Virus record (IMG/VR): IMGVR_UViG_3300003316_000301
Coordinates: 91,980 to 155,979 of that record
Strand: one strand, 5' to 3'
Length of the DNA: 64,000 nucleotides
Source: a virus
Lineage: Duplodnaviria > Caudoviricetes
Shown: positions 5,676 through 29,485 of the stretch, piece after piece
Layout: each line of letters starts with the position of its first letter
Position numbering within the stretch: position 1 is the first letter of the stretch
Notes under the pieces: model-generated
The model's database searches: none
What the model was told of the DNA's origin: nothing
What the model saw: only the letters and a program-made list of their open reading frames with translations
Position numbers and translations under genes: made by a program

Positions 5676-6764
5676 TCAGCCCATGTAGGGCTTGATCAGC
5701 TCGTCGATGATGCCGACGGCCTTCACGGGCGCCTGGGTGTTCAGGGCCTCCTGGACCTTGTTCAGGAGCATCCGGAAGGACTTCATGATCTGTTCGGTCT
5801 CGACCATGTGAACCGCGTCCTTGCCGGACAGCTCCTTGGACAGGTCGTGGATCTTCTTCTTCGCCGCCTCGCTGGCCTTGTCGAACGCGGCCTTGGCGTC
5901 GGTGTACTGCTTGTCCGACAGGGAGAGGTCCCGCTCCGCCTCCCTGCGGACTTGGGCGATCTGGTCCTCCAGTTCGGCAACCTGCTTCTTCAGGCCGTCG
6001 ATCTCAGCCGTACCAGCCGACCCGGCGAAGTTCTCCCCGAGAACCGAGACGAGCAGTTCCAGCGCGTCATTGACGTCAGAGGGGAGGGCGGGGCTGTGCA
6101 CGGGGGAGGTCTCCTGGGTCTCGGGGGCGGAGAGGACGGTTTCCGGGTTGTAGACGCCATGGCGGAAGCCCCGGTGCATGGCGAGCCCCTGCGGGCGCTT
6201 GGAGGTGAACTTCTTGCCCTGCTCCCAGCACTCGATGCAGTAGTACGTCTCGACCCCGTGGAGGTTCACGAGGAAGAGGCTCGACTGCGTCTGGCCCAGG
6301 AGCGCCGGGTCGAAGACCGGGATCTCGGTCGGCAGGACGCGGACCTCCTTCACGGGCTCGGGCTCCGGCTGAGCGTCCACGAGTCCGCCCTGGGTCGCCT
6401 CTTCGGCCTTCTTCTTGGCCCGGTCCGCTTCGGCCTTCTTCTTGGCCTGAGCGGCCTCGAAGGCCTTGCGCTGTGCGTTGGCCGCCTGCGCCTTCTTCTC
6501 GCCCTCCGCCTCCAGCTCAGCGAGAAGAGCCTCGGTCTCTTCAGGCGTACGGGCCGGGCCCTCGCCGATGAGGTTGTACTGGCGGGCGTTCGAGCGGAAC
6601 ACCTTCATCGACTCGTCGTTGGGGTTCAGACCGATCGTGATCGCAACGCCGTCGGGCGCGCTGATCACGATCTTCTGGTTCCGGATCGAGACGTCCCAGT
6701 CCGCAGCCTTCGCGAGATCGATCGCGTTCTGCACCTCAGCGGGTACGCGCTTGTTACCAGCCAT
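5676..6764 (-). CDS. HicA-like N-domain, C2H2 zinc finger and coiled-coil protein
   Basis: DW.V......I.APDG..I.....PND pattern; CIEC...HRGFRH; heptad-rich C-terminus; RBS before ATG at 6764. Confidence 0.65.
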   Translation of the reverse strand: MAGNKRVPAEVQNAIDLAKAADWDVSIRNQKIVISAPDGVAITIGLNPNDESMKVFRSNARQYNLIGEGPARTPEETEALLAELEAEGEKKAQAANAQRKAFEAAQAKKKAEADRAKKKAEEATQGGLVDAQPEPEPVKEVRVLPTEIPVFDPALLGQTQSSLFLVNLHGVETYYCIECWEQGKKFTSKRPQGLAMHRGFRHGVYNPETVLSAPETQETSPVHSPALPSDVNDALELLVSVLGENFAGSAGTAEIDGLKKQVAELEDQIAQVRREAERDLSLSDKQYTDAKAAFDKASEAAKKKIHDLSKELSGKDAVHMVETEQIMKSFRMLLNKVQEALNTQAPVKAVGIIDELIKPYMG

Positions 6765-6801
6765 GTGGCCTCCTCGGGTCGGTTCTCTCTGGCAGGACAA
6801 G

Positions 6802-6830
6802 AACCTACTACCAAGGATTCCTGGAGTCAA
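6802..6830 (-). promoter_or_regulatory. phage promoter TTGACT-N17-TAGGTT
   Basis: Near-consensus; spacer CCAAGGATTCCTGG at 6811-6824. Confidence 0.75.
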
Positions 6831-9800
6831 GCTCCCAGCTTCACCGGCTCCCAGCTACCTCCGATGCAGAGCATGATCTCCTTGACGTCCCAGGTCGCAG
6901 GCTCGACCTTGGGCAGGAACCGCACGTGGCTGTTGTGGTACTTCAGCGTGATGTGCGGAGTCCATCCATGATCATTGCGGACCTTGTACCCGTGCTCCAC
7001 GAGGAGTTCGTTCAGGTCGTGCCGGATCGCCCCTCCCCCGGGGATGTCCACGGCGGCCCACAGGACATGGTTGCCCGGGTTGGTGAAGGTACCGGCTCCG
7101 CCGACGCTGGCCTTGAAGGGCTTCTGCGTACGGGCCCACGCACGCACGAGGGAGTCCAGCCCGGCCACCTGGTCCTTGGAGTGCTCCGTCTTGCTCCCGA
7201 GGTAGCACAGGGTCACGTGGAGGGCCTCCAGGGGCTCCCCGTCCTCCACCAGCAGTTTCCGGCCGATGCTCTTGGGCGGCACGATGGCGATCATGATGCC
7301 GTCGCCGTCTGTTCCCGAGGCCTGGGAGAACAGGCCGGACAAGGTCCTCCTCGCCGTCGTGGGGACCCAGGGGCTCGGTCCGGTGGGCGAGGAGTTCTTC
7401 CACTCCCGCAGGCGCTCCCAGGGCCGGTCAGGGTGCTGGTCGAGGTACTTCTCCACGACGTTCGAGAGATCGAAGAGCCCCTTGCCGTTACCAGTGAAGG
7501 CGTCCGAGCGGTGGGTGTGCAGCTCCTCCCAGAGGTTGGCCGCCATGCGCTGGCGCTCCTCCTCCGGCAGCCTGCCGATCGCCTCGATCTCGTGGAGCAG
7601 GGTCTCGGCATAGTCCCAGTAGGACTCCGGCAGGTGGGTGGCGCTCCAGTCCTTCGGGACCTCCAGGGGGTGCACGGCCCAGGTGTCGTCGGTGACGTCG
7701 TAAGCCGCGTACGGCTTGAGGTTCCTGATGTCCCAGGCCCGGGGGTTCACGAAGAACGTCCGGTCGAAGGGGCCCACCTTGCGGCCGTCGGCCAGCTCGA
7801 AAAAGTAATTGTCGACATTCGCCTTGGACCACAGGGCGTCCGTCATCTGCTGGGCGATCTCGGCATCGTCCAGCTCCTCGTGATCCGGATTCTGGTCGCG
7901 GAACTCGGTCCAGTCGATGCCGATCAGGACGTCGAAGTCCCCGTTGAAGGGCTGCCACTTGGCCGCCTCGGACCCGGCGAAGTACACCTTGGCCCAGGTC
8001 TCCCAGCCGTCGTACAGGTGCCCCAGGACGCGCCCTACGCGGTCCAGGATGTCCTGGCGGACCTCCGGGCGCAGGTGGTCGCCCTCGAAGATGCGCTGGT
8101 CGTTCTGGGCACTGTTGGGGCCCCAGTACCGGCCCTCGGGGAGCCAGGTGTGGGTGTGGGTGTAGACCGGGTGGTCCCCGATCGTGGTGTTGTCCTCGTG
8201 GCCGTGCGAGCCGTCGTCGTGAGCCCAGCCGTCCATGGTGGTCATCTGGACCCGGTGGCCCTCGTTGTCGGTCCCCATGGTTCCCGGCGGCGTGTAGGCG
8301 GCCGTCGTGGACGAGGAAGACCCCGAGTCTCCCCCGGCGTCTCCCGAGTCGTCAGAGCCGCCCTGAAGGGCTTCCGGGACCCCTCCCATCCACCGGTTCT
8401 GGGTGTGCTTGCGCTTCTCCTCGTCGGCCTCCATGGCCCCTTGATGCTGGGCGGGTGCCTGGAAGTGCTCGTCGAACGTTCTCAGGGCGTTGTGGTGACC
8501 GTAGTGGCCCAGCAGCCCCCGGAACGTGTCAACGAAGTCCTGACCATGGCCGCCCGAGGTGAGCAGGTGGGCCATCTCGTGCAGTACAGCGTGGTTGTGG
8601 AAGTGGTTCGAACCCAGGTGGAGGCGAAGCTGCTCGTCCGGCTCCCCCAGCTCGTCCTCTCGCACGACGTAGCTGTGGTTCGGACGCAAGGTCGGCCTGA
8701 CGGCCAGGTCGGCCGCCTGCGGATGCCCGTGGTCGTGCAGGATCTGCCGGGCGTGGTCCCCGGCCTCCTCCAGATCTCCGTAGCGCTGGAGATCGTGACC
8801 GCCCTCCGTCATGGCCTTCTGAGCCGCGTAGACGTTCGTGGTCCACGCATCCCTCGCCGCTGTCGAGCGCACCCCCTCCGGGTCGGAGAGATCCGGCCTG
8901 GTCAGACAGACGAACTGAGGGCTCTTCCGGGTGAACAGCCGCATCTGCCGGTGCGGGACCTCGGTCTCGGCCCGGTGGCGGACCTCCGGCCAGGACTCGG
9001 CGAAGCCGGGGTGCAGCTCGCCGGACTCGTGCATCTCGTCGATCTGGGGCGCGGTGAACCACCGGTGCCCGGCCGCCTCGTGGGAGTGCGAGCCGTCCTC
9101 GGAGGGTGTGAACTTCTCCGGGGTGTCGGCGATCACCGTGTGGTACGACCAGCCCCCGTGGTCGTTGGAGTGCGTGCCGATGTGGCCGAGCGGCGGCAGA
9201 CCTCCCAGCTCCTCGTCACCCTCTCGGGTACCAGCCTCGAAAGGGGTCTCACCCCTCTCGATCGCTCCGCCGGGGATGGACCAGGTACCCGGGTGGTCGA
9301 CGTGCCGCGAGCGCTGCTGGAGCAGGTAGTGGTGGGTCCCCTCCAGGTCCGTGTGGCGCACCAGGAGTCCAGCCGCTCCGCGCGCTCCCCAGTGGTCGTG
9401 TCCCTGGGCGCAGGTGACCTCGTCGGGGTCCTTCGCGGCGTGCACCCGGATGGGGTTGTCGAAGGTGTGGGTGACAGGCCCGCGTGCCGAGTGCCAGGTG
9501 ATCCCCCGCACGTTCATGGGGGCGTTGCGCTTGAGGGGCACCTCCCGTTCGGGGTCCATGTCCCAGTCCCGTACGGCCCGGTCCTCCAGCACGTACGAGT
9601 TGTCCTCGATGTGGTGACGCTCGGGAGTGTCGGCGTGCAGGACCACGGCTGTCTGCCCGGGGCTGAGCCGGTCGCCGTTGAGGTGGTGGTAGCCGGGATC
9701 GTCGGTCCAGTGCACGCCGACGTTGCCCTTGGTCAGGGTGTGCTGGAGGACGGCTCGGGCCCGCTCATCCACCGGGAGCTTCTCGTTGTGCGCCGGGTGG

Positions 9801-11092
9801 CTGCTGGGAAGGTCCAGGGCGAGGTGGCGGTACACCCGGGACTGGAGCTTGGGGTGCCACTGGTCCCACATACGCTTGTGGAAACCGTCGTCCTCCTCGT
9901 ACTGGCTCTCCCCGACCTGCCGGGGCAGGCCAAAGCTCACTCCCGCCGTACGGGGCTCCAGGGGCTTGGCGGAGAAGCCGATCTCGCTCGGCTTGATCTC
10001 CGAGGGGATGTGCTCGCCGGTGGCCTCCGCCGGATGCCGGGCGGGCGCCGGAGCACCCTTCCCCGCGAGGCCGAACATGTTCCGGCTCACCCGCACGGGG
10101 ACGTGATCCATCCCGAGGACCCTGGCCGCCCGCAGCCGGTGGTTGCCCTCACCGAGGTAGGCCTCCCCCGTCTTGGGGTGGTACTGGAGCATCAGGGGCT
10201 CCATGTAGCCCTTCTCGGCGAAGTGGGTCGCCACCTCCCGCGCGTGGTCCCCGTCGGTCTCCTGAGTGGCGTACGGAGCCAGCTCGTGTGTGGGCACCAT
10301 CTCCACGTTCGGATGACCGGCGGTGTGCACCCGCACCCGGATGCCGTGCTGGTTCAGAAACCGGGAGGGGATGTCCCCTCCGTCGTACCTCGCTTCCAGG
10401 TCGGCCTGCTTGCGCACGGGGCTGGAGAAGTCGTACCGGTTGAAGGGCGTTCCGGTGTGGAACTTCATGCCCTCCTCGGAATACTTCTGCCCCGAGGACC
10501 AGTGGTCATTGCCCTCTCTCCACGAGACCCCCGTGACCTTCATCGGGGCCCCGGGACGGACCGGCAGGCGCCAGGAGATCTCGGGGTCGTACTTCTCCCC
10601 GGGCCGCATGTTCTCGTGCCAGTGGTGCTTGTCCGGCGGGGTCTCGGCGTGCATGACGATGTGGGTCGTCGGGCATCCGCCGTGACCAGACTCCTCGTCG
10701 CCGCAGTTGTGTTTGCGCTCGTGGTCGTTGTACGTCCCCCAGCCGGTCTGGTTGGCGTACTCGGCGGCCTTGTGGGGGCTCGGGCTCCAGTAGTTGCCGA
10801 GGCCGCCGGTGGAGCCCTCCTCGCCCTCCGGGCCCTGGTTCTGGGCGTTCTGCTTGCGGACCTCGCTCAGCAGCAGGTGTGCCTTGGCCGCCGGGGGCTG
10901 GTTGGGGTCGTGGACGAACTTGTGGACCTCCGGCCGCAGGACCACGGACAGGCCACGGTGGACCCCCTGGTCCCGGGTGTAGCCGCTCTCGTCCGGCCGT
11001 CCCATGGGCTGCGCGTGGTACTGGCTCTCCTCGGCGGGCGCCGCCGTCTTGTGGGCCGCCGTGGTGAACAGCTCGGTCAGGGTCTGGGACAT
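6827..11092 (-). CDS. polyvalent multi-enzyme protein (ART-like, ParB-N, ART-like, Nudix, zincin peptidase, Pol-beta-type nucleotidyltransferase, 2H phosphoesterase)
   Basis: GEGNHRLRAA; YRHL..GVHWT..EREV; GGAIERGETPFEAGTREGDEELG; HEMAH..H; FAGS..DFDV; HVT..HIT. ATG 11092 has a GGAGG RBS; the frame stays open upstream to GTG 11311. Confidence 0.85.
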   Translation of the reverse strand: MSQTLTELFTTAAHKTAAPAEESQYHAQPMGRPDESGYTRDQGVHRGLSVVLRPEVHKFVHDPNQPPAAKAHLLLSEVRKQNAQNQGPEGEEGSTGGLGNYWSPSPHKAAEYANQTGWGTYNDHERKHNCGDEESGHGGCPTTHIVMHAETPPDKHHWHENMRPGEKYDPEISWRLPVRPGAPMKVTGVSWREGNDHWSSGQKYSEEGMKFHTGTPFNRYDFSSPVRKQADLEARYDGGDIPSRFLNQHGIRVRVHTAGHPNVEMVPTHELAPYATQETDGDHAREVATHFAEKGYMEPLMLQYHPKTGEAYLGEGNHRLRAARVLGMDHVPVRVSRNMFGLAGKGAPAPARHPAEATGEHIPSEIKPSEIGFSAKPLEPRTAGVSFGLPRQVGESQYEEDDGFHKRMWDQWHPKLQSRVYRHLALDLPSSHPAHNEKLPVDERARAVLQHTLTKGNVGVHWTDDPGYHHLNGDRLSPGQTAVVLHADTPERHHIEDNSYVLEDRAVRDWDMDPEREVPLKRNAPMNVRGITWHSARGPVTHTFDNPIRVHAAKDPDEVTCAQGHDHWGARGAAGLLVRHTDLEGTHHYLLQQRSRHVDHPGTWSIPGGAIERGETPFEAGTREGDEELGGLPPLGHIGTHSNDHGGWSYHTVIADTPEKFTPSEDGSHSHEAAGHRWFTAPQIDEMHESGELHPGFAESWPEVRHRAETEVPHRQMRLFTRKSPQFVCLTRPDLSDPEGVRSTAARDAWTTNVYAAQKAMTEGGHDLQRYGDLEEAGDHARQILHDHGHPQAADLAVRPTLRPNHSYVVREDELGEPDEQLRLHLGSNHFHNHAVLHEMAHLLTSGGHGQDFVDTFRGLLGHYGHHNALRTFDEHFQAPAQHQGAMEADEEKRKHTQNRWMGGVPEALQGGSDDSGDAGGDSGSSSSTTAAYTPPGTMGTDNEGHRVQMTTMDGWAHDDGSHGHEDNTTIGDHPVYTHTHTWLPEGRYWGPNSAQNDQRIFEGDHLRPEVRQDILDRVGRVLGHLYDGWETWAKVYFAGSEAAKWQPFNGDFDVLIGIDWTEFRDQNPDHEELDDAEIAQQMTDALWSKANVDNYFFELADGRKVGPFDRTFFVNPRAWDIRNLKPYAAYDVTDDTWAVHPLEVPKDWSATHLPESYWDYAETLLHEIEAIGRLPEEERQRMAANLWEELHTHRSDAFTGNGKGLFDLSNVVEKYLDQHPDRPWERLREWKNSSPTGPSPWVPTTARRTLSGLFSQASGTDGDGIMIAIVPPKSIGRKLLVEDGEPLEALHVTLCYLGSKTEHSKDQVAGLDSLVRAWARTQKPFKASVGGAGTFTNPGNHVLWAAVDIPGGGAIRHDLNELLVEHGYKVRNDHGWTPHITLKYHNSHVRFLPKVEPATWDVKEIMLCIGGSWEPVKLGA

Positions 11093-11101
11093 GGCCACCT
11101 C

Positions 11102-11138
11102 CACCCCTTCGGGCTTGTACTGCACCCAGAGACAGCAG
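11102..11138 (-). promoter_or_regulatory. candidate late promoter CTGCTGTC-N20-GAAGGGGTG
   Basis: Same bipartite motif and spacing at 48630-48666 and 56757-56793. Confidence 0.65.
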
Positions 11139-11307
11139 AAGGCCCCCGAGTGAACGGGGGCCTTCCAGCACAGTGAAGCGAGATCCCGCCAGAGATCCGA
11201 CTCAGGAGGCCGCTCGCCGAGGAGCAGACCAATCACTGCGTACGTGGCCGGGTGAAACGGCCGATATCGAAAGCATGCCATGATCGCAAGCTCTTCGGCA
11301 AGGTCGC

Positions 11308-13377
11308 TCACATGCGATTACGCCGACCACGGGAACGGGCGCTCTCGTGGAACATGTCCTGCCGGGCTCCCCGGGCCCGGCCGAATCCCCCGAGCTGACG
11401 GAAGACGTCCTGGTCAGTCCTGGGACCACCGGAGAACTCGTCTCCCCGGCTCATGCCCGGGAAGGGGTGGATACCGCTCTGCATGGCGCCCTGGGGCCGC
11501 ATGGCGCCCAGCTCGGAACGCAGGGAGATGATCTGGTCCCCGATCAGGGCCATGACGCACTCCATCATCGCGTCGGCGACGTCCTTCGTCTGGACCGGCC
11601 CGGAGTCCGGGTGGTCCACCACGCCGTTCTTCTCCTGGAGGAACCTCAGCTCCAGTTCGGCCTGCTCGTAGTAGGGCGCGTGGACCCAGCCCATGTTCAC
11701 GGCGGTCTTGAAGATCTCCGCCCGGGTCCAGTTGTGCTGGCGGGTCGCGGTCTTCTCGTAGACCTGGGTGACCTTGGGCAGACCGGACTGCCGGGACCTC
11801 TTGGCCAGACGCTGGATGACCTGGGCCGAGTTGAACTGGTCGAAGGTCATCTCGGTCGGCATGAACGGCGAGAGGATGTTGCCCCAGATCCACTCCTCCA
11901 CCTGGTCGTAGTCGACGATGTGATCCGTGAAGTCCTGCGGCCGGAAGTGGTGGATCCGGTCGAACACCACATGGAGCCGGTTGTCCGGGCCCGGCTCGGC
12001 GTGGGCGCAGGCCAGACCGAAGTTCGCGTTGGACTTCGAGGGGTCTCCGTGAGCCTTGTAATCCAGATCCATCCGGCCCCGGATCTGCATGCCCAGCTCC
12101 GGCTGGCCGTAGAACTCCTGACGGGCGTGCCAGGGATGGAAGATCTCCTTGACCTTCTGCTCGTTGAGGTAGGCGTCCAGAGCCACGGCGAAGTGGCTGC
12201 GGCGCTCGACCTTGAAGGTGTCGGGGTTGGCCTGCTCCTCGCGGGCCATCTGGTCGTCGTACGCCTGAATGGCTCCCCGCAGGGGCTGGAAGTAGAGGGT
12301 CGGCTTGCCCTCGTACTCCCCGAGGTCGCCGGTGTAGCCCTCGGGGAACACCGGGATCGTGTGCGCGATCTCCCAGTCCTTGTAGATGTCCCAGCTCGCG
12401 AGCTGGATCATCAGCATCTCGGGGTAGACCGGCTCCCCGTTCTCGTCCTCCATGATCGAGTTCTGGTAGTTCACGTAGAACTGCCCGAGCATCTGCCAGG
12501 GGCTGGACGGCTCGATGATGAACGCGTCCATGCCGAACTGGTCCAGGGACGGCTTGGCCGCCGCGTAGACCTCCTCGGCCGACCGGTTGGCGCCGGAGGC
12601 GACCACGTGGGCCATCTCGTCCCAGGCCTGGCAGAACGAGGTCGGACCTCGTCCGGCCATCAGCGTGGACTCCTTCGGGACCAGCTCGAAGGTGGCCATG
12701 TTGATGTCGTCAGGGTTCATGCCCTGCTCGGCCCGCTTCCTCATCCGCAGGAAGTCGTTCGGGGCGTAGATCGAGAGCTTCTCCGCCTGGAGGGGCGCAC
12801 GGATGTACGGGGCGAAGCAGGCAGAGCCGGTGATGTAGTTCACCGCGTCCTGCCACACCGTGGCCTTGGCCTGGTCCCGCTTTCCGGCGAACACCATGGC
12901 CACGAGCTTCTTGTCCCGGTCCACGCCGTAGTAGCGCTGCGGGTCGCCCTTGGCCATGTAGTTCCACAGCACGTAGGCCATGGACAGGCCGGAGATGTGG
13001 CCCTTACCGGCACGGCGGCCCATGACCAGGAGGGTCTCCCGGAACCACTTCCGGCCCTCCTTGCGGAGCTTGGCCATCCTGCGCCGGACACCGGGCACGA
13101 CTCCGTTGTTGCCGGTCTGCCGGAAGCTCTCCTCCCACTCGTCGATGACCGCGTGGTCGTACTCCGTCAGCAGGTCGAGCCGCAGGAAGATGACCTTCAG
13201 CAGTGTGGCCTGGCGCGGGTACATGTTCGGCCGGTCCAGGTAGTCCGCACTGAGCACGAAGGTGATCGGGTCGGGTACCGGAAGGCCGGTGAAGAGCTGG
13301 AAGAGCTTGTCCGGCCCGAAGGCGGGCGGCAGCGTGGAGACGCGCGGCTTGGACCGGACCACAGTCTGGGCGGCCAT
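11308..13377 (-). CDS. terL: terminase large subunit
   Basis: Walker A MGRRAGKG, Walker B AWDEMAH, coupling motif SSP, nuclease acidic motifs HGDPS, TFDQFNS, KDVADA. Confidence 0.9.
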   Translation of the reverse strand: MAAQTVVRSKPRVSTLPPAFGPDKLFQLFTGLPVPDPITFVLSADYLDRPNMYPRQATLLKVIFLRLDLLTEYDHAVIDEWEESFRQTGNNGVVPGVRRRMAKLRKEGRKWFRETLLVMGRRAGKGHISGLSMAYVLWNYMAKGDPQRYYGVDRDKKLVAMVFAGKRDQAKATVWQDAVNYITGSACFAPYIRAPLQAEKLSIYAPNDFLRMRKRAEQGMNPDDINMATFELVPKESTLMAGRGPTSFCQAWDEMAHVVASGANRSAEEVYAAAKPSLDQFGMDAFIIEPSSPWQMLGQFYVNYQNSIMEDENGEPVYPEMLMIQLASWDIYKDWEIAHTIPVFPEGYTGDLGEYEGKPTLYFQPLRGAIQAYDDQMAREEQANPDTFKVERRSHFAVALDAYLNEQKVKEIFHPWHARQEFYGQPELGMQIRGRMDLDYKAHGDPSKSNANFGLACAHAEPGPDNRLHVVFDRIHHFRPQDFTDHIVDYDQVEEWIWGNILSPFMPTEMTFDQFNSAQVIQRLAKRSRQSGLPKVTQVYEKTATRQHNWTRAEIFKTAVNMGWVHAPYYEQAELELRFLQEKNGVVDHPDSGPVQTKDVADAMMECVMALIGDQIISLRSELGAMRPQGAMQSGIHPFPGMSRGDEFSGGPRTDQDVFRQLGGFGRARGARQDMFHESARSRGRRNRM

Positions 13378-18849: not shown

Positions 18850-19695
18850 TCAGATGGTTCGGATGGTGCAGCCCGTGGCGGCGCAGGAACCGGCCTCAGG
18901 GCTCCGTACGGCGCAGCAGGGCTCCGGCATGTAGCCGGTGTCGGCCCAGCTCCTCACGCGGCGGTACTTGGCCTCTAGGGCCAGCACGTACGCGGCGTCG
19001 TACTCGACGTGGATCTCCTTCATGACCCAGGGGAAGCCCATGCCGATGAACAGCATGATCATCATCCGGAGGCCGGAGAGGGCCATGTACTCCTGCATCT
19101 GGCCGTAGTAGTACGGGTGCTTGGTCTTCAGCCACTCCAGCGCCTTCTCGCTGGTCGGCCCGTCCGGGATCTTGGCGGCCGAGAAGTGGTTGATGGTCTT
19201 GATGTCCAGGCCGGTCATGCCGAGGGACGGGGTGAGCACCACGCCGTCCATGTGGCCCCGGCGCTTCAGTTCGTGGTCGACGACCCCCGGCTCCCCGCAC
19301 TGGCCCTCCTTGGGGCCGTACGGGCGCGAACAGGCCGGGCAGGTCCCCTGGGGGATCTGCCAGATCCGGAGGTCCCTGAGGGCCATCTGGACGATCTCGT
19401 GCTCCAGGGTGCCCACGGTGACCGACATGCGGCCCTCGTAGCTCCAGGGCTCCGGCTCCCACCGGTCCGGCTGGGTGAGGTACAGGTAGAGCTTGCGCTC
19501 CGGCATGGTCGGGTGGGTGGAGGGCCAGAACCAGTCGTTGGGCTCCCGGTCGGGATCCCCGCCCTCCAGCCGGATCATCGTGTTTCGGGGGAACCGGCCC
19601 TCGGCGATGTAGAGACGCACCAGCGGCGCGAGGACGTAGCCGCTTGCGGCGGCAGCCCCCTCGCGCCGCATAGCGGCTTCAGGATCGAAGCTCAT
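18850..19695 (-). CDS. Cas4-like PD-(D/E)XK exonuclease
   Basis: GHMDG, LDIKT, GQMQEYM, C-terminal Cys cluster. Confidence 0.75.
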   Translation of the reverse strand: MSFDPEAAMRREGAAAASGYVLAPLVRLYIAEGRFPRNTMIRLEGGDPDREPNDWFWPSTHPTMPERKLYLYLTQPDRWEPEPWSYEGRMSVTVGTLEHEIVQMALRDLRIWQIPQGTCPACSRPYGPKEGQCGEPGVVDHELKRRGHMDGVVLTPSLGMTGLDIKTINHFSAAKIPDGPTSEKALEWLKTKHPYYYGQMQEYMALSGLRMMIMLFIGMGFPWVMKEIHVEYDAAYVLALEAKYRRVRSWADTGYMPEPCCAVRSPEAGSCAATGCTIRTI

Positions 19696-20129
19696 CGGCA
19701 GCAGTCACAGCCCTGGGTCATCGTCAGCTCGATCTTCTTGCTGGCGATCCTCTCGCTCAACTCCTGCTGGGCCTGCCACTTCCGGGCGTCCGCGAGGACC
19801 TCGGCAAAGAACCGGGAGTCCACCACGGTCAGGTCGGTGTCGACCTTGCGGAGCGTCTCGTCCGCGTAGAAGCGCAGGTGCAGCGAGGGCTCCATGCCCT
19901 GGAAGGTCTGCTCCCTGGCCTTGGCCCACATGTCCCGGGTGATGCCGATGGACTTGCCCAGGGTGGACTTGCCGTCCCCGGCCATGGCGTACGGGACGGC
20001 CGGGTCGTTCACCACGTCCATCTGGTTGTGCCACTGGTTGCCGGAACCCTTCTGGACGCGGCCCTTCAGCCACTCGGCGATGTCCGCCTCATGCGCGTCG
20101 CCCATCTGCTGGTTCAACGTCCTCGGCAT
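19692..20129 (-). CDS. Hjc-like PD-(D/E)XK endonuclease/resolvase
   Basis: G..HE..IA...G....GSG......D......DGKST. Confidence 0.65.
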   Translation of the reverse strand: MPRTLNQQMGDAHEADIAEWLKGRVQKGSGNQWHNQMDVVNDPAVPYAMAGDGKSTLGKSIGITRDMWAKAREQTFQGMEPSLHLRFYADETLRKVDTDLTVVDSRFFAEVLADARKWQAQQELSERIASKKIELTMTQGCDCCR

Positions 20130-20496
20130 CCTGATCCTCCCACAGCTTGTTCTTGACGGTCTCGCAGTAGACCGCGATGTGCAGCAGCCCGGCCGGACCT
20201 GCCTCGGGCCAGATCAGTACGCGCTCGCCGGGGTGGATGACCCGGCCGTGGCAGATGCAGCGCTTGGAGATCTCGGGGATCTCCGGGTCGTAGTCCCGCC
20301 ACTCCGGCACGAGGCCCTCCCAGGCCCGCCGGGGGCGGTCCTTGCGCCAGTTATGACGCAGGACCTGTCGCCGGTAGAGCCTCCAGCCCCCGGCGACCAC
20401 CAGCGCGGCCATCAGGCCGGTGAGGACGCCGAAGAGGAAGGAGGTGACCTGGAAGAACCAGGTCAGGAAGTCGAGGAACGCGAAGAAGTCATCCAT
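20089..20496 (-). CDS. membrane protein
   Basis: N-terminal hydrophobic helix. Confidence 0.6.
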   Translation of the reverse strand: MDDFFAFLDFLTWFFQVTSFLFGVLTGLMAALVVAGGWRLYRRQVLRHNWRKDRPRRAWEGLVPEWRDYDPEIPEISKRCICHGRVIHPGERVLIWPEAGPAGLLHIAVYCETVKNKLWEDQDAEDVEPADGRRA

Positions 20497-20535
20497 GGGG
20501 ACCCCCGGGATTTGCTGTGGTGTGCATCACTCCTA

Positions 20536-21621
20536 TCACCCCCGCCGGAACTCGATGGAGGCCTCGGGGGTCAGCTCACCGGCGATCGACTCCAGGGACT
20601 TGGCCCGGACGGCCTCCAGGGCCTTGGGGTCGTCCCGCAGGCGCCTGATGGCTGCGGCCTTGCCGTTCTCCTTGGTGCCGTCGGGGAAGACCCAGTAGTG
20701 GCCGTTGCCCTTCACCAGAGCCTCGGTCTTCACGCCGACGTCGAAGGCCTCGGCGGCCACGTCGATGCCCGCCGGGTTGCCGTCGAACTCGACCTTGTTG
20801 AACCAGAACTTCGCGATCCCTCCGGCCGTACGGAGCTTGCTGCGCTCCACGCGGGCGGTGACCGTGTGGGCGACCTCGATCTCCTGGCCGTCGCTGTCCT
20901 TGATCTTGGTCGTGTCCTCGGCGCCGAAGCCTCGGCGCATGACCACGGAGTCCGTGGTGGTGTAGCCCATGATCATGGGACCGGCCGCCTTGTCCCCGCC
21001 CATGGCGAAGTCCGTGCGGTACTGGTTCACCAGGATCGTGCCGGTGTTGGAGTCGTTGCCGATCACCGCAACCTGCTTGCACAGGCGGGAGATGACCTGG
21101 GCGTTCTTGCCCATGTCGCTCTCCTCGGCGCCCTTCTCGTACATGGCCTCCGCGCGCTCCATGGAGCCGATGGAGTCCACGCCGACGAGGGAGAACAGCT
21201 CCGAGCGGAGCATGTCCCGCAGGATGTCCGAGACCTCCTCGGAGGACTGCGGCTTGACGTACAGCAGGCGCTTCTTGCTGACATCGATCCCCATGGCCTG
21301 CGCCCGCTCCCAGGTCCAGGTGCGCTCCATGTCGATGTAGCCGACCTGGAGGTCCGGGTACTCCTTCTGGGCGTTGGCGAGGCCGATCATCACCATGGCC
21401 GTCTTGCAGCAGCCCGGCTTGCCGATGACCTGGTGCATGCGTCCACGGGCCCAGCCACCTCCCAGAGCGACGTCCAGCCCCGCGACGCCCGTCGGGACGT
21501 ACAGGATCTCCTCGGCCGTCTCGTGGCGCTCCACGCGGTCTCCGTAGCGCTTCTCCATCTGGGCCCGGAAGGCATCCAGGGAGGACGGCGGAGAGTAGGC
21601 CTTCTTGGTCTTCGGGGGCAT
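20536..21621 (-). CDS. recA: RecA-like recombinase
   Basis: PTG..GLDVALGGGWARGR, Walker A GKPGCCKT, YIDME, VDSIG, LVNQYR. Confidence 0.9.
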   Translation of the reverse strand: MPPKTKKAYSPPSSLDAFRAQMEKRYGDRVERHETAEEILYVPTGVAGLDVALGGGWARGRMHQVIGKPGCCKTAMVMIGLANAQKEYPDLQVGYIDMERTWTWERAQAMGIDVSKKRLLYVKPQSSEEVSDILRDMLRSELFSLVGVDSIGSMERAEAMYEKGAEESDMGKNAQVISRLCKQVAVIGNDSNTGTILVNQYRTDFAMGGDKAAGPMIMGYTTTDSVVMRRGFGAEDTTKIKDSDGQEIEVAHTVTARVERSKLRTAGGIAKFWFNKVEFDGNPAGIDVAAEAFDVGVKTEALVKGNGHYWVFPDGTKENGKAAAIRRLRDDPKALEAVRAKSLESIAGELTPEASIEFRRG

Positions 21622-21629
21622 CGGATCTC

Positions 21630-22019
21630 CTACTGGTTCCGGGCGTTGCCGAGGGTCTGGCTGTTGCCGAACCTGGTGTCGTGACTGACCTGGGCCGGAC
21701 CCCGGTACTCCAGGGCGCTGGCCGTCTGCGTGGTCCCGGTGGGCTCGGCGTCGCCCAGGAACACCTGGACGTACTCCTCCGGGCTGCTCGCGATGTTCCT
21801 GCGCTGGCCGTCGATCTCCAGCGAGGTGGCGGACTGGACCCACTGCCCCCGGAAGAGCCGGTAGGTGCAGGTCATGCGGACACGGTCGTTCTCGTGCTCC
21901 AGCACGAGGTGGATCCCCCGGCGGACCACCGTGGGCTCCACCGAGGTGTGCTCGGTCAGGAAGTCCCGGAGGATCCGGATGAAGGGCGGGACGTGCTCTG
22001 GTCGCACGGGTGAGGACAT
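21630..22019 (-). CDS. hypothetical protein
   Basis: AAGGAG RBS; operon position. Confidence 0.7.
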   Translation of the reverse strand: MSSPVRPEHVPPFIRILRDFLTEHTSVEPTVVRRGIHLVLEHENDRVRMTCTYRLFRGQWVQSATSLEIDGQRRNIASSPEEYVQVFLGDAEPTGTTQTASALEYRGPAQVSHDTRFGNSQTLGNARNQ

Positions 22020-22031
22020 GGCGGGATCTCC

Positions 22032-25000
22032 TTACACAGGGAGGTATTCCTGCACGATGTAGCCCTTGTCGTCGGCCTGCTTCTCCAGGACGACCAGACA
22101 GAGCTGACCCTCGTGCATACCGGTCTTGATCTCGGCCCACTTCCGGGGGAAGCAGACGGCCTCCACGGTGGACAGCTCGGTGTCCAGGTTCAGGAAGGCC
22201 ATCTCGTCCCCGCTGGCGCGGGTCTTGGTCTTGCGGATGCCCATCAGGATCGCGGCGACCGTGTACATCCGACCCGCGTCCCCCTCAGGCATCTCCTCAG
22301 CGTCTCCCAGCAGGCGCTGCCGGTCGACCGGGTCGAGCCGGTCGAACGGGGTCGACGAGAGGAACACCCCGAGCAACTCGTGCTCGATCGCCCGGATCGT
22401 CTCGTCGTCGTACGGCTCCACGGAGCCCAGGTCCAGCGGGGGCCGGGGCGTGTACTGGCGGCAGGCCTTGGTGCAGCGCTTCGGCGGGGGCTTCCTGGGG
22501 AGGACCTTGAGGGTCCTCGGGTTGACCGGCGGCTCCTCGGTGCTCCAGTCGAACCCGCAGCCCGCCGGTGCGCCCTCGTGGCAGGTGCCGGAGCCGAGGT
22601 GGACGCACTTCGCGTCCTCCTTGCTCTTGCGCATCTCCAGCAGGCGCACCAAGCCCGCGCGATGGGGCTCCAGCGAGTCCATGGCGCCGACCTTGGCCAG
22701 CAGCATCTGGATGCCCGCGTTGGCACCGGAGCCCTTCTGGGTCACGTACTCGTCGAAGGCCTCCCAGGAGGCGTACGGCTGCCCGGCGATCAGGTAGTCG
22801 ACGGCGGCCTCGCCGATGCCGTTGATCGCGTCCAGCCCGTAGCGGACGGCCAGCGGCTCGGCCTGGAAGCCCTTGCGGGAGGCGTTGATGTCCGGCGGGA
22901 GCACGGTGTACCCGTTGCGGCGCACCTCCTTGATGAACTCCGGGATCCGCTTCTGGTCGATCGTGCTCAGGGCGGCCGTGAAGAACTCCACCGGGTAGTG
23001 GAACTTCAGCCAGGCCGTCCAGTACGCGAGGACTGCGTAGGCGTACGCGTGGGCCTTGCCGAACGAGTACTTGGCGAACTCGGCCATCTGGTCCCACAGA
23101 TGCTGGGCGGCCTCGCGCTCCATGCCGTTGGCCACGGCCCGGGTGACGAACTCCTGGCCTGCCGGACCGATCTTCTCGATCTTCTTCTTGCCGAGGATCT
23201 TGCGGACCTCGTCGGCCTCGTCGGAGGTGTAGCCGCCCAGGACGATGCAGGCGGACATGATCTGCTCCTGGTAGATCATGCAGCCCCAGGTGGGACCGAG
23301 GATCTCCTCCATGCGGGGGTCGGGGTAGCTCACCGGCTCCAGCCCGGCCCGCCGCTTCAGGTACAGCTCGGTCAGGCCGGAGCGCATGGGGCCCGGCCGC
23401 ACCAGGGTGATCATGTCGCACAGCTCGGCCAGCGTGAGCGGGCCCATGCGCTGGCACAGCCGGGTACCGGCGTGCGTCTCGATCTGGAAGATCCCGAGGG
23501 TCTTGGCCGCCGCGACCTCTTCCCAGACCTGCGGGTCCTGGTACTCCTCCTGCCAGTCGTAGACGTCCACCGAGACGTCCCGGATCTCCTTGACCAGGTC
23601 CACCGTCCATTGGACTGTGTCCAAAGTTCGAATGGTGAGGATGTCGAACTTCACCAGGCCCATGGACTCCAGCGCGTTCATGTCGAACTGGGTGACCATC
23701 CGGCCGTCCTCGCCGCCCATGAGCGGGAGCCAGCCGGTCAGGGCCCGGTCCGTGGAGATCACGACACCGGCCGCGTGCTTGCCGTAGCTCTTCAGGCGTC
23801 CCTGGAGCCGGTCCGCCATGGAGAACAGTTCGGGGTACTTCTCCCGGTAGGGCTGGAGGTCGTCACCGAACTGGGCCCACAGGTCCTCCCAGGCCATGCC
23901 GAGACCGGCCTTGTCCGACTCCGCCAGCTTCACAATGTCGGCGACCTTCGCCATGTCCTTGTGGACCTCTGCACGGCGCTCTGCGAGCCTCTCCCGGGCC
24001 CGGCCGATGGCGGAGTCCACCCCGGACTCCAGAGCCTCGTCCAGGGCCGCCTGCTCCTTGGCGACCATCACAGACATCATCGAGCGCGTGAGGTCCTTGA
24101 CGATGCCCTTGGACTTCAGGCGCAGGTGCGTGCCGATCTGGACCACGAAGTCGGCCCCGTAGGTGTCGGCCAGGTACCCGAGGATCTTCTCCTTCATGGA
24201 CGCCGGGAAGTCGACGTCGAAGTCCGGCAGGGAGGTCCGGCCCTCGGTCATGAAACGCTCGAAGGGAAGGTCTCCCTCCACCGGGTCGATCTCGGTGATC
24301 CCGCACAGGTACGCGACCAGGGAGCCGCCGCCGGAGCCGCGTCCCGGACCCACGAGGATGCCCTCCTCCTTGGCCCACCGGCAGTAGTCGGCGACCATCA
24401 GGAAGTACCCGCAGAAGTCCTTCTGCTTGAGCAGGGCGAACTCCCGCTCGAAGCGGGCCATGTAGTCCTCGGACCGGCCTTTGGTCTCTACCTTGGACCA
24501 GCTCGCCAGACAGACGTCCAGGAGACGTTCCGTGTCCCTCTTGTGGCCGCCCTTCTTAGAGAAGACCGGAGGTTCGGGTTTGCCCCCGATCCGCGCGTCC
24601 GTACGGGTGACAAGGTCGAGCGTGTTGCCGACCGCCTCTTCGACCGCTTCAGGACCGAGGTAGGCCAGCCCGCGCCGGACGTCCTCCTCTGTCTGCATGT
24701 AGAGATCAAGGTTGACTGCGAAGAGGTCTCCCTCGTCGGCGACGTCCTTGTCCGTCTGGACGGCGATCCAAGCCTGATGAGCATCATGGTCAGTCTGCTG
24801 GGGGTAGTGGGAGTCGACCGTGGCCATGAGGGGGACCCCGAACTCCTTCCCCAGACGGACCATCGCCTCATTGACCTTGCGCTGCTCTGCGAGCGCATTG
24901 GGCTGCACCTCCAGGTAGAAACGGTCCCCGAAGATGTCCAGGAGCTTGGCCAGGTTCGTCCGGGCCAGCCCCTCGTCGTCGTTGAGGACCGGGACGGCCA

Positions 25001-25929: not shown

Positions 25930-26883
25930 CTACGACCGGGTGATCCGCGCCTTCATGGCGGCCAGGGCGTCCGCGTTGGGCGTCGCCGGGGCGCTGCCCG
26001 AGGGGGTGCCGCCGGAGCCGCCCGAGGACTTGCCCGAACCCTTCGCGGCCGGGACCAGCTCGCCGGTCTCGCGGCGGACGTCCACCGAGGCGAAGCCGTC
26101 CTCCTCCAGGAAGAACTTCTTGTAGTAGTCGTCGGTGGTCTTCGAGTAGATCATCGTCGCCAGCTTGATGCCGAACGCGTCCACCGCGAGCTGGTAGAAC
26201 TCCCAGTGGTCGGTGCCCGGGAGGATGTCGGGGTCCTTGTCCAGCGGGAAGACCTGGTAGATCGTGCCGGTGCCCGAGGGGTTCTTGACGCGCTTGATGC
26301 GGTAGTCCCGGTCCATCAGCGTGTCGTACGACTCGCCGCAGGACTTCAGCGAGTTCATGAGCATGTACATCGTGTTCGAGACGATCACGATGGACGGGAC
26401 GGAGACCTTCTCCTCGGTCGGCTTGCCGTCCTCGCCGAGGACCGGGATCTCGACCATCTTGTCCCGGTAGGCCTTGCGGCCGGTCGTCTCGTCCTTGTAC
26501 GCCTCGCGCTCGACCGCCAGGGTGTAGCGCAGGTCGTCGCCCTTGTTCTCCTTGCCGTACTTGTTCTTGTACCCGGACTGGCACAGCGGGCAGCCCTCGG
26601 GGTACAGGTGCGCGAACGCGGGCTCCTGGCGGCAGGTGGCGGGCATCGCCGACGGCCACTTGCCCTCGTAGTCGGCGGGCTCGGCCTTGGTCGGGAAGAA
26701 GCGGTGGGTGCGGGCGCGGTACCAGTCGGCGGACTCGCTCAGAAAGCGGAGGATCGCCTCCTCGCCCTCCTTGAGGTCCCAGTGCGGCTCCTTGCGGAAG
26801 CCGCCTCCGGCACCACGGTTCTCGTCCTCGTCGTCGCCACGGCGCAGTGCGGCCTCGGGGTCGAAGTCGGGCGCGATCGTCAT
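25930..26883 (-). CDS. gp32-like single-stranded DNA-binding protein
   Basis: AILRFL, H..F, C...CPLC zinc site, DY.IKR..G.GT.Y, flexible C-tail; sits in the replication cluster. Confidence 0.7.
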   Translation of the reverse strand: MTIAPDFDPEAALRRGDDEDENRGAGGGFRKEPHWDLKEGEEAILRFLSESADWYRARTHRFFPTKAEPADYEGKWPSAMPATCRQEPAFAHLYPEGCPLCQSGYKNKYGKENKGDDLRYTLAVEREAYKDETTGRKAYRDKMVEIPVLGEDGKPTEEKVSVPSIVIVSNTMYMLMNSLKSCGESYDTLMDRDYRIKRVKNPSGTGTIYQVFPLDKDPDILPGTDHWEFYQLAVDAFGIKLATMIYSKTTDDYYKKFFLEEDGFASVDVRRETGELVPAAKGSGKSSGGSGGTPSGSAPATPNADALAAMKARITRS

Positions 26884-26910
26884 GTGGTCTCCTCGTGAGA
26901 CAGGGAATGA

Positions 26911-27756
26911 TCAGGAACTGAGGGAACTGAGGAACTCGGTGAACGCCTGGCGGGCGATCTCCGAACTGGGCTCGATCTCCGTGGAGAAGAACAGCACCGG
27001 CCTCTCGCGGACGTAGTCCATCATGAACGGCTGGTCTGACACCGACGTCACGCCGATGCCCATCTCCGGGTACGAGCCCTGTCGTGCGGCTTCGACCGCC
27101 AGGAGGCTCTGCCACTGCCGGAGGGTGTCCTCGTCCTGGACGAAGCTCTTGGTCCTCCAGGCGTAGTAGCTGTAGTCCCAGCTCTCTGCCTTTCGACGCC
27201 TCTGATCTTGCCGGAAGGCCTTGACGCTGTCAACCTCTTCTTCGTCGAGACTGACGTACCCCCAGTCTTCCAGCACATCGTCCGAGGTCACGGGCTGTCC
27301 GAGGCGCTGAGAGCGCTCGGCGGCCTCCCGGTGAGCCCGGCGCTTGAGGTCCTCCTCGGTGTAGTCGTCGAGGAAGACCTCACCCTTCTTGGTGCGGTCG
27401 TACGCCTCCCGGGTGACCGGGTCCAGGAGCTGCTTGAAGACGTACGTGAGCCGGGTGGAGGACTGGCCGTCCAGGGCCACATAGGCCTCCCGCAGCTCCT
27501 TCTTGGTGGCCCGCCAGTCCACCCCCAGCTCCCGGTAGTAGCCGTTCACGTCGTGGCAGACGCGCTCGACCGGCACCAGGGACATGGAGGTAGACCAGCG
27601 GTCCGGACCCCAGCCCAGACGGGCGGGGCGCTCGTAGCAGAGCACCTCGCCCGCGTCCTGCCCCTTGCGCATGGCCTCCACGGTCTCGGCCGTCGGCAGC
27701 ACCTCGGCGTACTGGCCGAGGATGCCCGCCAGGTCCAGGTCGGGTCGGGCGCCCAT
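26911..27756 (-). CDS. DnaJ-like (J-domain) protein lacking HPD
   Basis: YYRELGV...AT.KELREAY ... L.DP..R.AYD. Confidence 0.7.
   Translation of the reverse strand: MGARPDLDLAGILGQYAEVLPTAETVEAMRKGQDAGEVLCYERPARLGWGPDRWSTSMSLVPVERVCHDVNGYYRELGVDWRATKKELREAYVALDGQSSTRLTYVFKQLLDPVTREAYDRTKKGEVFLDDYTEEDLKRRAHREAAERSQRLGQPVTSDDVLEDWGYVSLDEEEVDSVKAFRQDQRRRKAESWDYSYYAWRTKSFVQDEDTLRQWQSLLAVEAARQGSYPEMGIGVTSVSDQPFMMDYVRERPVLFFSTEIEPSSEIARQAFTEFLSSLSS
27205..27233 (-). promoter_or_regulatory. internal promoter TTGACA-N17-CAAGAT with TTGAC-N3-GTCAA palindrome, upstream of ssb
   Basis: TTGACGCTGTCAA at 27221-27233 is identical to 5023-5035. Confidence 0.55.
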
Positions 27757-27896
27757 CAGTCCTCCGTGGGTTCCTCGCCCTCCCGCTCGATGTCCCGGAC
27801 GTCCTGCCGGGTGAGCGGGGTGGCTGACGCGATCTTGCGGACGGTCTCGCCGTCCTCAGTGATGACCTGGCCGGTGCCGGTCTTCTGAAGGGCCAC
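27756..27896 (-). CDS. small acidic hypothetical protein (46 aa, not in ORF track)
   Basis: GTG with AGGAGG RBS, MALQKTGTGQVITEDG..., TGATG coupling to the next gene. Confidence 0.65.
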   Translation of the reverse strand: MALQKTGTGQVITEDGETVRKIASATPLTRQDVRDIEREGEEPTED

Positions 27897-27905
27897 AGGG
27901 GCCTC

Positions 27906-29069: not shown

Positions 29070-29485
29070 GCCGCGTCTGCCGTCTTCGTCGGGTAGCCGT
29101 AGCCGCAGCGCAAGCACCGCTGGCACAGGTGCTGGGTCGTGTGCTCGGAGAGGATCCCGGCCAGCACCCAGGCCCCGCAGGGGAAGTCCTGGCCCTCCCC
29201 CACGGTGATCACCACACGGGCGTGGTAGATCACCTGCATCTGGCTGAACCCGCACTTCGGGCAGGCCCGGTCCTCGTCGTGGAGGTCGTAGTCCCTCAGG
29301 CCCATGTCGGCCGGGGAGAGGATCTCCCCCTCCTGGGGCTCACCGGCGCACTCCTGCTCGGCCCGCTCGTCGTCCGAAGGGACTTCACAGCGGACGCAGC
29401 GCAGGTGGTCCACCTGGCCCTCGGGGCCCTGGCGCTCCTCGTCGGCCTCCCACTGGTGGCCGTACTCGTCCTGGTTGCTGGTCAT
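29066..29485 (-). CDS. zinc-ribbon hypothetical protein
   Basis: CVRC, CPKC, CLRC; ATGA coupling. Confidence 0.7.
   Translation of the reverse strand: MTSNQDEYGHQWEADEERQGPEGQVDHLRCVRCEVPSDDERAEQECAGEPQEGEILSPADMGLRDYDLHDEDRACPKCGFSQMQVIYHARVVITVGEGQDFPCGAWVLAGILSEHTTQHLCQRCLRCGYGYPTKTADAA

Follow-up and report, generated by a model that had tools for sequence, protein, structure and literature searches.

A seven-module polyvalent protein encoded beside the large terminase gene of a 156-kb myovirus

What does a phage gain from a single 1421-aa protein that is encoded directly after its terminase gene and joins seven enzyme-like modules in one chain, and when and where would such a protein act? 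We addressed these questions for a gene in the final 64 kb (positions 91,980 to 155,979) of the 155,979-bp virus record IMGVR_UViG_3300003316_000301 of IMG/VR (Duplodnaviria; Caudoviricetes). The window, as we call this whole 64,000-nt stretch, belongs to a record that has a G+C content of 67% and is rated complete; the minus strand bears nearly all of the real genes, including the gene described here and all of its modules. Polyvalent proteins are encoded by phages and conjugative elements and bring together, in a single chain, from two to fifteen effector domains of unrelated kinds (Iyer, Burroughs, Anand, de Souza and Aravind 2017, PMC5512222). They are thought to be the phage's first strike on host immunity, and almost none has been studied at the bench. 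With seven modules of six fold types, separated by disordered linkers, the 1421-aa protein falls within this range and belongs to the polyvalent class as Iyer et al. define it, as a preliminary description drawn from the sequence had proposed. We put a probability of roughly 0.6 on the reading that it is an effector acting early on host macromolecules and on NAD- and nucleotide-derived molecules.

Seven modules in one polypeptide

The polyvalent gene occupies positions 6827 to 11092 as a single open reading frame, with its stop codon at 6827-6829. Because the frame is open throughout from 6827 to 11311, a longer version starting with GTG at 11311 was considered. This start was rejected since a GGAGG Shine-Dalgarno sequence stands 6 nt before the ATG at 11092, the additional stretch contains a hairpin, and the close homologues share the starting methionine (P0005, P0007, and P0009) and the first residues. 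Thus, the Shine-Dalgarno sequence and the homologue starts uphold the gene borders first proposed. An artefactual fusion of several genes was ruled out as well because the frame is open and four to six close homologues are collinear across it.

We set the module borders by BLAST and phmmer comparison with 71 homologues, after which alignments were built, and predicted the structure in two pieces (residues 1-722 and 723-1421). On the 1421-aa protein, Pfam detected above threshold only a Nudix and a 2H phosphoesterase domain, together with a weak ParB_N match, and PHROGs agreed. All seven domain calls of the preliminary description held: Nudix and 2H by Pfam, the ParB/sulfiredoxin (Srx), 2H, ADP-ribosyltransferase (ART), and nucleotidyltransferase (NTase) folds by the predicted models, and the zincin by hhalign. 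Segment-by-segment structural comparison of the models was clear for ParB/Srx and 2H, moderate for ART and NTase, and weak for the zincin. Five of the seven domain calls are firm, while those of ART and NTase come from motifs and middling fold scores. In the reading that we prefer, the seven modules, numbered M1 to M7 from the N terminus, fold independently as a chain of enzymes. Further searches returned little: megablast of the gene against 50,697 phage records gave no match, tblastn against known phages matched only the NTase and 2H parts, and an Atlas shape search found nothing beyond unnamed viral clusters and ParB.

The 71 homologues all come from metagenomes or unnamed assemblies, many of them from contigs of 100-167 kb. 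They share the NTase module (M6) or the 2H module (M7), and most have both, as their C terminus. NTase and 2H form the fixed C-terminal core of a family with 70 members or more, and this constant pair is its most interesting part. The N-terminal part is shuffled, with 29 module orders among the 71 proteins, and the order of seven modules seen here occurs once. Here, the N-terminal cassettes are an ART-like module without ExE (M1), a ParB/Srx module (M2), an ART-like module with R-T-ExE (M3), a Nudix hydrolase (M4), and a SprT-like zincin (M5); other members bear GNAT, ART-PolyVal, and Arr-ms modules. Because the catalytic residues of every module are invariant across ~70 relatives, save the ExE motif of M1, while the cassettes shuffle, the modules appear to be working enzymes that are exchanged as cassettes. 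Such strict active sites, combined with a changing cassette order between close relatives, suggest that each module is a working enzyme under arms-race selection. In one relative (L011:1-13540), an HNH_3 gene separates the polyvalent gene into two parts, of which the second begins inside the NTase module, with residue 2 of P0055 aligned to residue 1007 of the 1421-aa protein.

The 2H module (M7, residues 1246-1421; 6830..7357) matched Pfam PF13563 with 46.6 bits against a cut-off of 27 (4.8e-12). Its two HxT motifs lie at residues 1292-1294 (HVT) and 1380-1382 (HIT), and H1292/T1294 and H1380/T1382 are kept in 42/42 sequences. The structural matches (Foldseek, 1e-7) place it with the LigT/ThpR type: Deinococcus CPDase gave a Z score of 17.6 and LigT 15.9, and the NCBIfam model TIGR02258 matched with 6e-10 and 39 bits, under its equivalog cut-off of 65.7. 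Acb1, with a Z score of 9.5, ranked 19th, after the LigT/ThpR, Usb1, AKAP18, and viral 2',5'-phosphodiesterase (PDE) groups. M7 is thus predicted to be nearer to LigT/ThpR than to Acb1, and the analogy with Acb1 drawn in the preliminary description proved loose, as the LigT/ThpR-type RNA 2',3'-cyclic phosphodiesterases reach Z 16-18. In one relative (L009:7001-13086), a gene of its own (194 aa) encodes the 2H module and overlaps with the last part of a 1834-aa polyvalent gene; therefore, the core pair can be split.

The preceding module (M6, residues 931-1245; 7358..8302) consists of a putative Pol-beta-type NTase and a helical C-terminal subdomain. G1040 and D1052/D1054 are present in 51/51 sequences and S1041 in 48/51. 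Across residues 999-1135, every structural match with a Z score of at least 5 was an NTase, except 3gku; the matches included 1ylq (6.2), MNT (5.4), HI0073 (5.4), pol beta (5.3), cGLR (5.1), and CdnE (5.0), with CCA-adding enzymes at 4.9-5.0. An Atlas language-model search also returned an NTase as its lead (score 0.93). Together, these data give moderate support to the assignment of M6 as a Pol-beta-fold NTase, and the matches are non-discriminating between MNT-type, CCA-adding, and cGAS-like enzymes. No Pfam model matched any member of the M6 alignment, and comparison of its profile with PDB sequences gave chance matches only. Related NTases also occur on their own: 324-aa homologues with 28-32% identity, in which G-S and DxD are kept, lie in prophage-like regions of Streptomyces chromosomes, such as that of S. 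diastatochromogenes (L030:7001-7975), and CHAP and SLT genes adjoin such copies. The BRock-like Streptomyces phages likewise have a stand-alone copy of the module.

The two ART-like modules, M1 (residues 30-235; 10388..11005; pLDDT 85-93) and M3 (residues 386-560; 9413..9937), matched each other in phmmer searches with ~25% identity, as expected for paralogues. Structural matches to residues 37-227 and 390-549 were almost all ARTs, among them pertussis S1, PltA, LT, Scabin, pierisin, CARDS, DarT, Tpt1, Arr, and IcmQ, yet their Z scores were only 3.5-5.2 on the 722-residue model. For M1 (Z 5.2-3.6), we found pertussis toxin S1 (5.2, 128 aligned), EcPltA (4.5), TreX (4.3), and Arr (3.6), and for M3 (Z 5.0-3.5) IcmQ (5.0), Scabin (4.7), LT-A (4.1), Tpt1 (4.0), and DarT (3.9). 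The ART signature, an arginine on strand 1, a serine or threonine after strand 2, and ExE before strand 5, is present in M3 but not in M1. In M3, the R-[ST]-ExE set is complete, with R422, E515, and E517 in 31/31 sequences and position 463 being threonine in 30 and serine in 1; R422 sits in strand 419-426, T463 ends strand 461-463, and E515/E517 lie at strand 517-520. In contrast, M1 keeps R46 and G99..W102-S103 but has S173/R175 at the places of ExE, as part of an S-W-R that is invariant in 39/39 sequences. These results agree with the earlier view of two paralogous copies, the first without ExE and the second with the R-S/T-ExE pattern, and moderately support two paralogous ART folds. An insert of M1 (residues 124-140; 10673-10723) reads HExxHxCGD..GGC, with H124, H128, C130, and C140 in 39/39 sequences and E125 in 37/39, and is a candidate zinc site.

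None of the 57 domain copies of the M1/M3 type matched a Pfam model, which includes every member of the M1 alignment, and a profile search of PDB sequences with the ART-like alignment gave chance matches only. An Atlas feature search with M3 returned no usable match, and a word-indexed search for stand-alone M3 relatives found none. The two modules were not filed as ART-PolyVal because hhalign to the ART-PolyVal domains of relatives gave only 10% and 2%. The ART-like pair and the NTase are thus families without a curated model and serve as leads for new NAD- or nucleotide-using activities.

Between the two ART-like copies lies the ParB/Srx module (M2, residues 236-385; 9938..10387), which carries GEGNHRLRAA. 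Foldseek gave a probability of 1.0 to both sulfiredoxin and ParB, with a TM score of 0.6 to Srx. The structural Z scores were 7.6-6.2, with Osa as the best match (7.6) and Srx at 7.2, and GxGNHR was invariant in 14/14 sequences. By sequence, M2 matched a ParB-like PHROG (6e-5) and Pfam ParB_N with 13.5 bits, under the gathering cut-off of 26.3, whereas relatives do carry PF02195. A role in chromosome partition was rejected, as there is no ParA partner and the nearest fold is Osa/Srx.

The Nudix module (M4, residues 561-722; 8927..9412) matched Pfam PF00293 with 46.6 bits against a cut-off of 21.1 (E 4.3e-12) and a PHROG with 1e-15. Its box, G609-G630, is full (G609, E615, R623, E624, E627, E628, and G630) and kept in 8/8 sequences. 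Since this part of the predicted model is poor (pLDDT ~30), the call is based on Pfam. The zincin cassette (M5, residues 723-930; 8303..8926), which is followed by a Ser/Gly-rich linker, has HEMAH at residues 838-842, and H838, E839, H842, and H849-G-x-x-F (HExxH..HG..F) are invariant in seven sequences. The hhalign comparison gave 97.8% (E 1e-12) to a SprT-like stretch of the relative P0060, which itself scored 25.3 bits, slightly under the Pfam PF10263 cut-off of 25.6. PF10263 had no match in the 1421-aa protein, for which YgjP-like was best (E 0.076), and the fold support was weak, with jannalysin at Z 4.9 and pLDDT 70-80. On these grounds, M5 is classed as a putative SprT-like zincin. It is a clean 207-residue indel relative to P0005; the nearest relatives (68-85% identity) are without it, and only five matches were found among 1.8 billion representative proteins.

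Timing, delivery, and rival explanations

The gene for the large terminase subunit, terL (11308..13377, minus strand; PHROG phrog_2, 5e-7), lies directly upstream of the polyvalent gene. By tblastn, it matches annotated terminases of Bxz1-like phages and of the Rhodococcus phages E3 and Finch, with 33-36% identity across 85-92% of its length. The polyvalent gene directly follows terL here and in all six relatives in which terL is visible (7/7 loci), and this synteny holds even for members that are only ~38% identical. The position after terL, noted in the preliminary description, is thus a constant feature of these loci.

Between the two genes, we found a compact cassette (11098..11166, minus strand) consisting of a perfect 12-bp GC-rich hairpin (-26 kcal/mol), CTGCTGTC, exactly 20 nt, and GAAGGGGTGGAGG, with the ATG 5 nt further on. 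The bipartite element TTGCTGTC-N20-GAAGGGGTGGAG, with this exact spacing, has only four copies in the 156-kb genome. One copy lies before the polyvalent gene; the other three lie before the gene of the tail sheath (phrog tail sheath, 7e-67), a gene of 717 aa close to the portal gene, and a 916-aa protease-like/DUF7178 gene. The copies mostly stand just 3' of a strong GC hairpin, and those outside the window are at L002:3240-3277, L003:5972-6009, and L004:3790-3827. The element is also kept before the polyvalent orthologue of a relative (L012:2948-2985). It is a candidate for a phage-specific, possibly late, promoter or leader cassette. The late-type promoter of the preliminary description thus gains some substance, because the element is shared with a certain late gene, the tail sheath; as for a promoter of the familiar kind, a sigma-70 consensus scan between terL and the polyvalent gene found no promoter-like site.

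A second recurrent motif marks the protein itself. TL[TS]xLFxxA[AS] occurs at the N terminus and again where M6 joins M7, and the 916-aa protein has it too, which makes three matches in the proteome against 0.47 expected, and it recurs at the N termini and joints of relatives in both families (polyvalent and 916-aa). In addition, the ART-like domains terminate in (K/R)-x-A. No major capsid protein was identified in the genome. These motifs raise the possibility that the protein is cut at its joints. 2H domains are linked to virion proteins elsewhere: in other phages, distant relatives form fusions with portal and MuF (P0068, P0071, and P0073), and a 2H of the same clade is fused to a capsid-protease/MuF protein in Streptomyces phage Abt2graduatex2.

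Published work (PMC5512222, PMC9503650) sees arrays of this kind as acting at an early stage of infection, both by altering host macromolecules and by clearing immune signals derived from NAD or nucleotides. According to the reading that we prefer, the modules would act in parallel soon after DNA entry, with targets among host macromolecules as well as among molecules derived from NAD or nucleotides. M3 would move ADP-ribose from NAD, and the ParB/Srx module would be an Osa-like NTP-dependent nickase or NTPase. The Nudix module would cut NDP-X compounds, such as ADP-ribose (ADPR), NAD, or caps, the zincin would cut proteins, and the NTase-2H pair would handle RNA ends or 2'-5'/3'-5' (cyclic) oligonucleotides. 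The earlier suggestion that one polypeptide holds potential writers and erasers of NAD and nucleotide signals is a reasonable reading of this set of domains. As to the route, the protein would be expressed late from the element shared with the tail-sheath gene, taken up by the capsid, perhaps with cleavage at the (K/R)-x-A or TLTxLF joints, and ejected with the DNA. We consider late expression likely; packaging is favored by a little over even odds, and we lean slightly toward the complete route from late expression through capsid loading to ejection.

Several observations weigh against this reading of the locus. The upstream element that the genes share could be a sign of a high expression level instead of late timing. 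The fold matches of the ART and NTase modules are middling (Z 5-6), and both families are invisible to Pfam models and PDB sequence profiles. The genes that follow the polyvalent gene are small and non-structural, and those of relatives include TerD, DUF6011, and ribonucleotide reductase downstream and RecA upstream; the virion genes are distant, with portal, tail, and baseplate at 40-65 kb and the portal and tail genes at 60 kb or more. In Bxz1-like phages, Tonenili, and E3, the terminase gene closes the late block and small non-structural genes come next. Finally, Pfam and PHROGs detected no MuF, portal, or other known head-anchor domain in the 1421-aa protein. The packaging and injection put forward in the preliminary description are a plausible proposal.

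Much of this evidence would fit the same enzyme array made early or in the middle of infection, at the head of the small-gene block after terL, and acting in the cytoplasm without ever entering the virion. The strong hairpin between terL and the polyvalent gene, the ~55 kb downstream of small, mostly uncharacterised genes and nucleotide-metabolism genes, and the RecA, ribonucleotide reductase, metallophosphatase, and RNA ligase genes near the polyvalent gene in relatives all suit such a protein, as do the non-structural post-terminase genes of Tonenili and E3 and the lack of a head anchor detectable by Pfam or PHROGs. We nevertheless regard a non-virion protein as possible but doubtful, given that the upstream element is common to the tail-sheath gene and two virion-region genes and no other gene, that portal and MuF fusions exist for related 2H domains, and that the linker motif is shared with the protease-like protein. 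If instead packaging and cutting are real, the joints and the upstream element would serve as a simple guide to virion-delivered effectors throughout the lineage. The most elaborate version of the delivery reading is a dedicated "effector polyprotein" system of ~150-160-kb Streptomyces phages, in which a late element drives expression, a TLTxLF-type signal directs prohead loading, and a head protease cuts at (K/R)-x-A to free up to seven injected enzymes; NTase-2H would be an undescribed two-enzyme counter-defence unit, and M1/M3 and M6 would be new enzyme families outside the domain libraries. We think that a system this complete is rather unlikely.

The substrates can also be read differently. 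Because M7 is nearest to RNA 2',3'-cyclic phosphodiesterases (TIGR02258, 6e-10; Z 16-18), RNA-end healing is a real rival to signal degradation. Where host anticodon or tRNA nucleases leave 2',3'-cyclic phosphate ends, the 2H module would open them; the NTase would rebuild 3' ends, and the ART and Nudix modules would handle NAD-derived by-products. CCA-adding enzymes among the NTase matches (Z 4.9-5.0), tRNA 2'-phosphotransferase among those of M3 (Z 4.0), a tRNA-His guanylyltransferase-like gene in the same phage, and an Rnl1-type ligase and a metallophosphatase near the gene in one relative point the same way. However, the 2H versions of polyvalent proteins are not associated with RNA ligases (Iyer et al., PMC5512222), the NTase matches are undiscriminating (MNT, pol beta, cGLR, and CCA enzymes all at Z 5-6), and the hypervariable GNAT, Arr, and ART cassettes would be left unexplained, which makes a repair machine improbable in our view. 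A further option is defence against small molecules. NTase, GNAT, and Arr are classic folds of antibiotic-modifying enzymes (ANT, AAC, and Arr), and Streptomyces metabolites inhibit phages, so that such modules could inactivate aminoglycoside- or rifamycin-like compounds made by the host and shield the incoming phage. The hosts are apparently Streptomyces, GNAT and Arr-ms modules occupy the same position in relatives, and an Arr-ms domain occurs in a second large protein of the genome. Yet the 1421-aa protein itself is without a GNAT or Arr module, and no aminoglycoside NTase was among its top structural matches; we judge antibiotic inactivation very improbable.

The phage, its host, and neighboring proteins

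Apart from terL and the polyvalent gene, the genome encodes a portal, a tail sheath, a baseplate J protein, an endolysin, a pectate-lyase-fold tailspike, a DNA polymerase, and a primase. On the basis of the Bxz1/E3-like terL and this portal, sheath, baseplate, and replication gene set, the phage is a ~156-kb high-GC myovirus of a broad actinobacterial group, with Bxz1 and E3 as distant relatives. The NTase module and a second large protein have relatives on 151-157-kb contigs of Streptomyces and Kitasatospora assemblies; thus, Streptomyces or a close relative is the probable host. Four such loci (L013-L016) are in Streptomyces assemblies, and one of them (L016, NZ_CP191269.1) was deposited as a complete plasmid, pRLB1-9.1. 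The presence of 151-157-kb replicons in Streptomyces assemblies suggests a carrier state or a phage-plasmid lifestyle. As Streptomyces isolates seem to carry such phages as extra replicons of ~150 kb, the family is a tractable case for bench work on polyvalent proteins.

The next gene downstream of the polyvalent gene (5676-6830, minus strand) is kept in close relatives, where its product has 362-363 aa, and encodes a CxxC...HxxxxH zinc-finger-like motif and long coiled coils. The 916-aa protein (L002:528-3278, minus strand; G000 19527-22277) combines an N-terminal domain like the head-maturation proteases of jumbo phages with DUF7178. Its family is modular too, with relatives that add Nudix, GNAT, ParB, and even Hint-type modules, and constitutes a second polyvalent-like family of the same phages. 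A further large ART-bearing protein, of 1262 aa (L002:7340-11128, minus strand; G000 26339-30127), has an Arr-ms domain, similar to rifampin ADP-ribosyltransferase, at residues 808-902; its gene adjoins the tailspike gene, within the virion gene region. The tRNA-His guanylyltransferase-like gene (L003:11594-12634, minus strand; G000 50093-51133; PHROG E 7e-72) and a nearby dCTP deaminase gene point to tRNA and nucleotide handling by the phage.

Comparison with known systems

Because the polyvalent class was described by Iyer et al. (PMC5512222), the protein analyzed here is a variant within that class, the kind itself being known. Like the proteins described there, it combines the hub domains ART, ParB/Srx, zincin, and 2H, along with Nudix, its architecture differs strongly between relatives, and its predicted role is early counter-defence. 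In contrast to them, it has no MuF, portal, ArdC, or other delivery or anchor domain, its NTase-2H C-terminal core and its place after terL are fixed, its ART-like and NTase families escape detection by Pfam, and its zincin is SprT-like and not the Pfam MPTase-PolyVal. In the literature, we found no description of a variant without MuF or portal that has a fixed NTase-2H core, a fixed post-terL place, two non-Pfam module families, and a SprT-like cassette.

Individual modules have their own nearest systems. M7 resembles the LigT/ThpR-type 2H enzymes, Deinococcus CPDase and E. coli LigT, in its fold and in both HxT motifs, but forms the last module of a phage protein of 1421 aa. With the anti-CBASS protein Acb1, rotavirus VP3, and MHV ns2, it shares the 2H fold in a viral setting of nucleotide immune-signal degradation; Acb1 (Z 9.5) and VP3 and ns2 (Z ~12) are further from M7 than LigT is, and this likeness comes from the fold. 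For M2, the nearest known systems are perhaps the DdrB-like ParB domains of polyvalent proteins and, by structure, Osa (PDB 4ovb), a ParB/Srx protein of plasmid fertility inhibition, which matched over residues 231-384 with Z 7.6 and the GxxR arginine kept, at a sequence identity of at most 11%.

A known counterpart of the N-terminal half is Bxz1 gp83. Foldseek aligned the N-terminal 722 residues with its orthologues in Bigswole and Tonenili (E 2e-15 to 6e-6), and hhalign detected in gp83 a domain of the M1/M3 type with G.HWT and E.EV (77%, E 2e-5). At 769 residues, gp83 is without a terminase neighbor; hhalign of the NTase profile detected no NTase in it, and Pfam gave no match at all, 2H included. 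The phages themselves are related in lineage and genome size, and the ART-like and ParB part of the 1421-aa protein is common to Bxz1 gp83 and its cluster C orthologues, which are annotated as "ParB-like nuclease domain protein".

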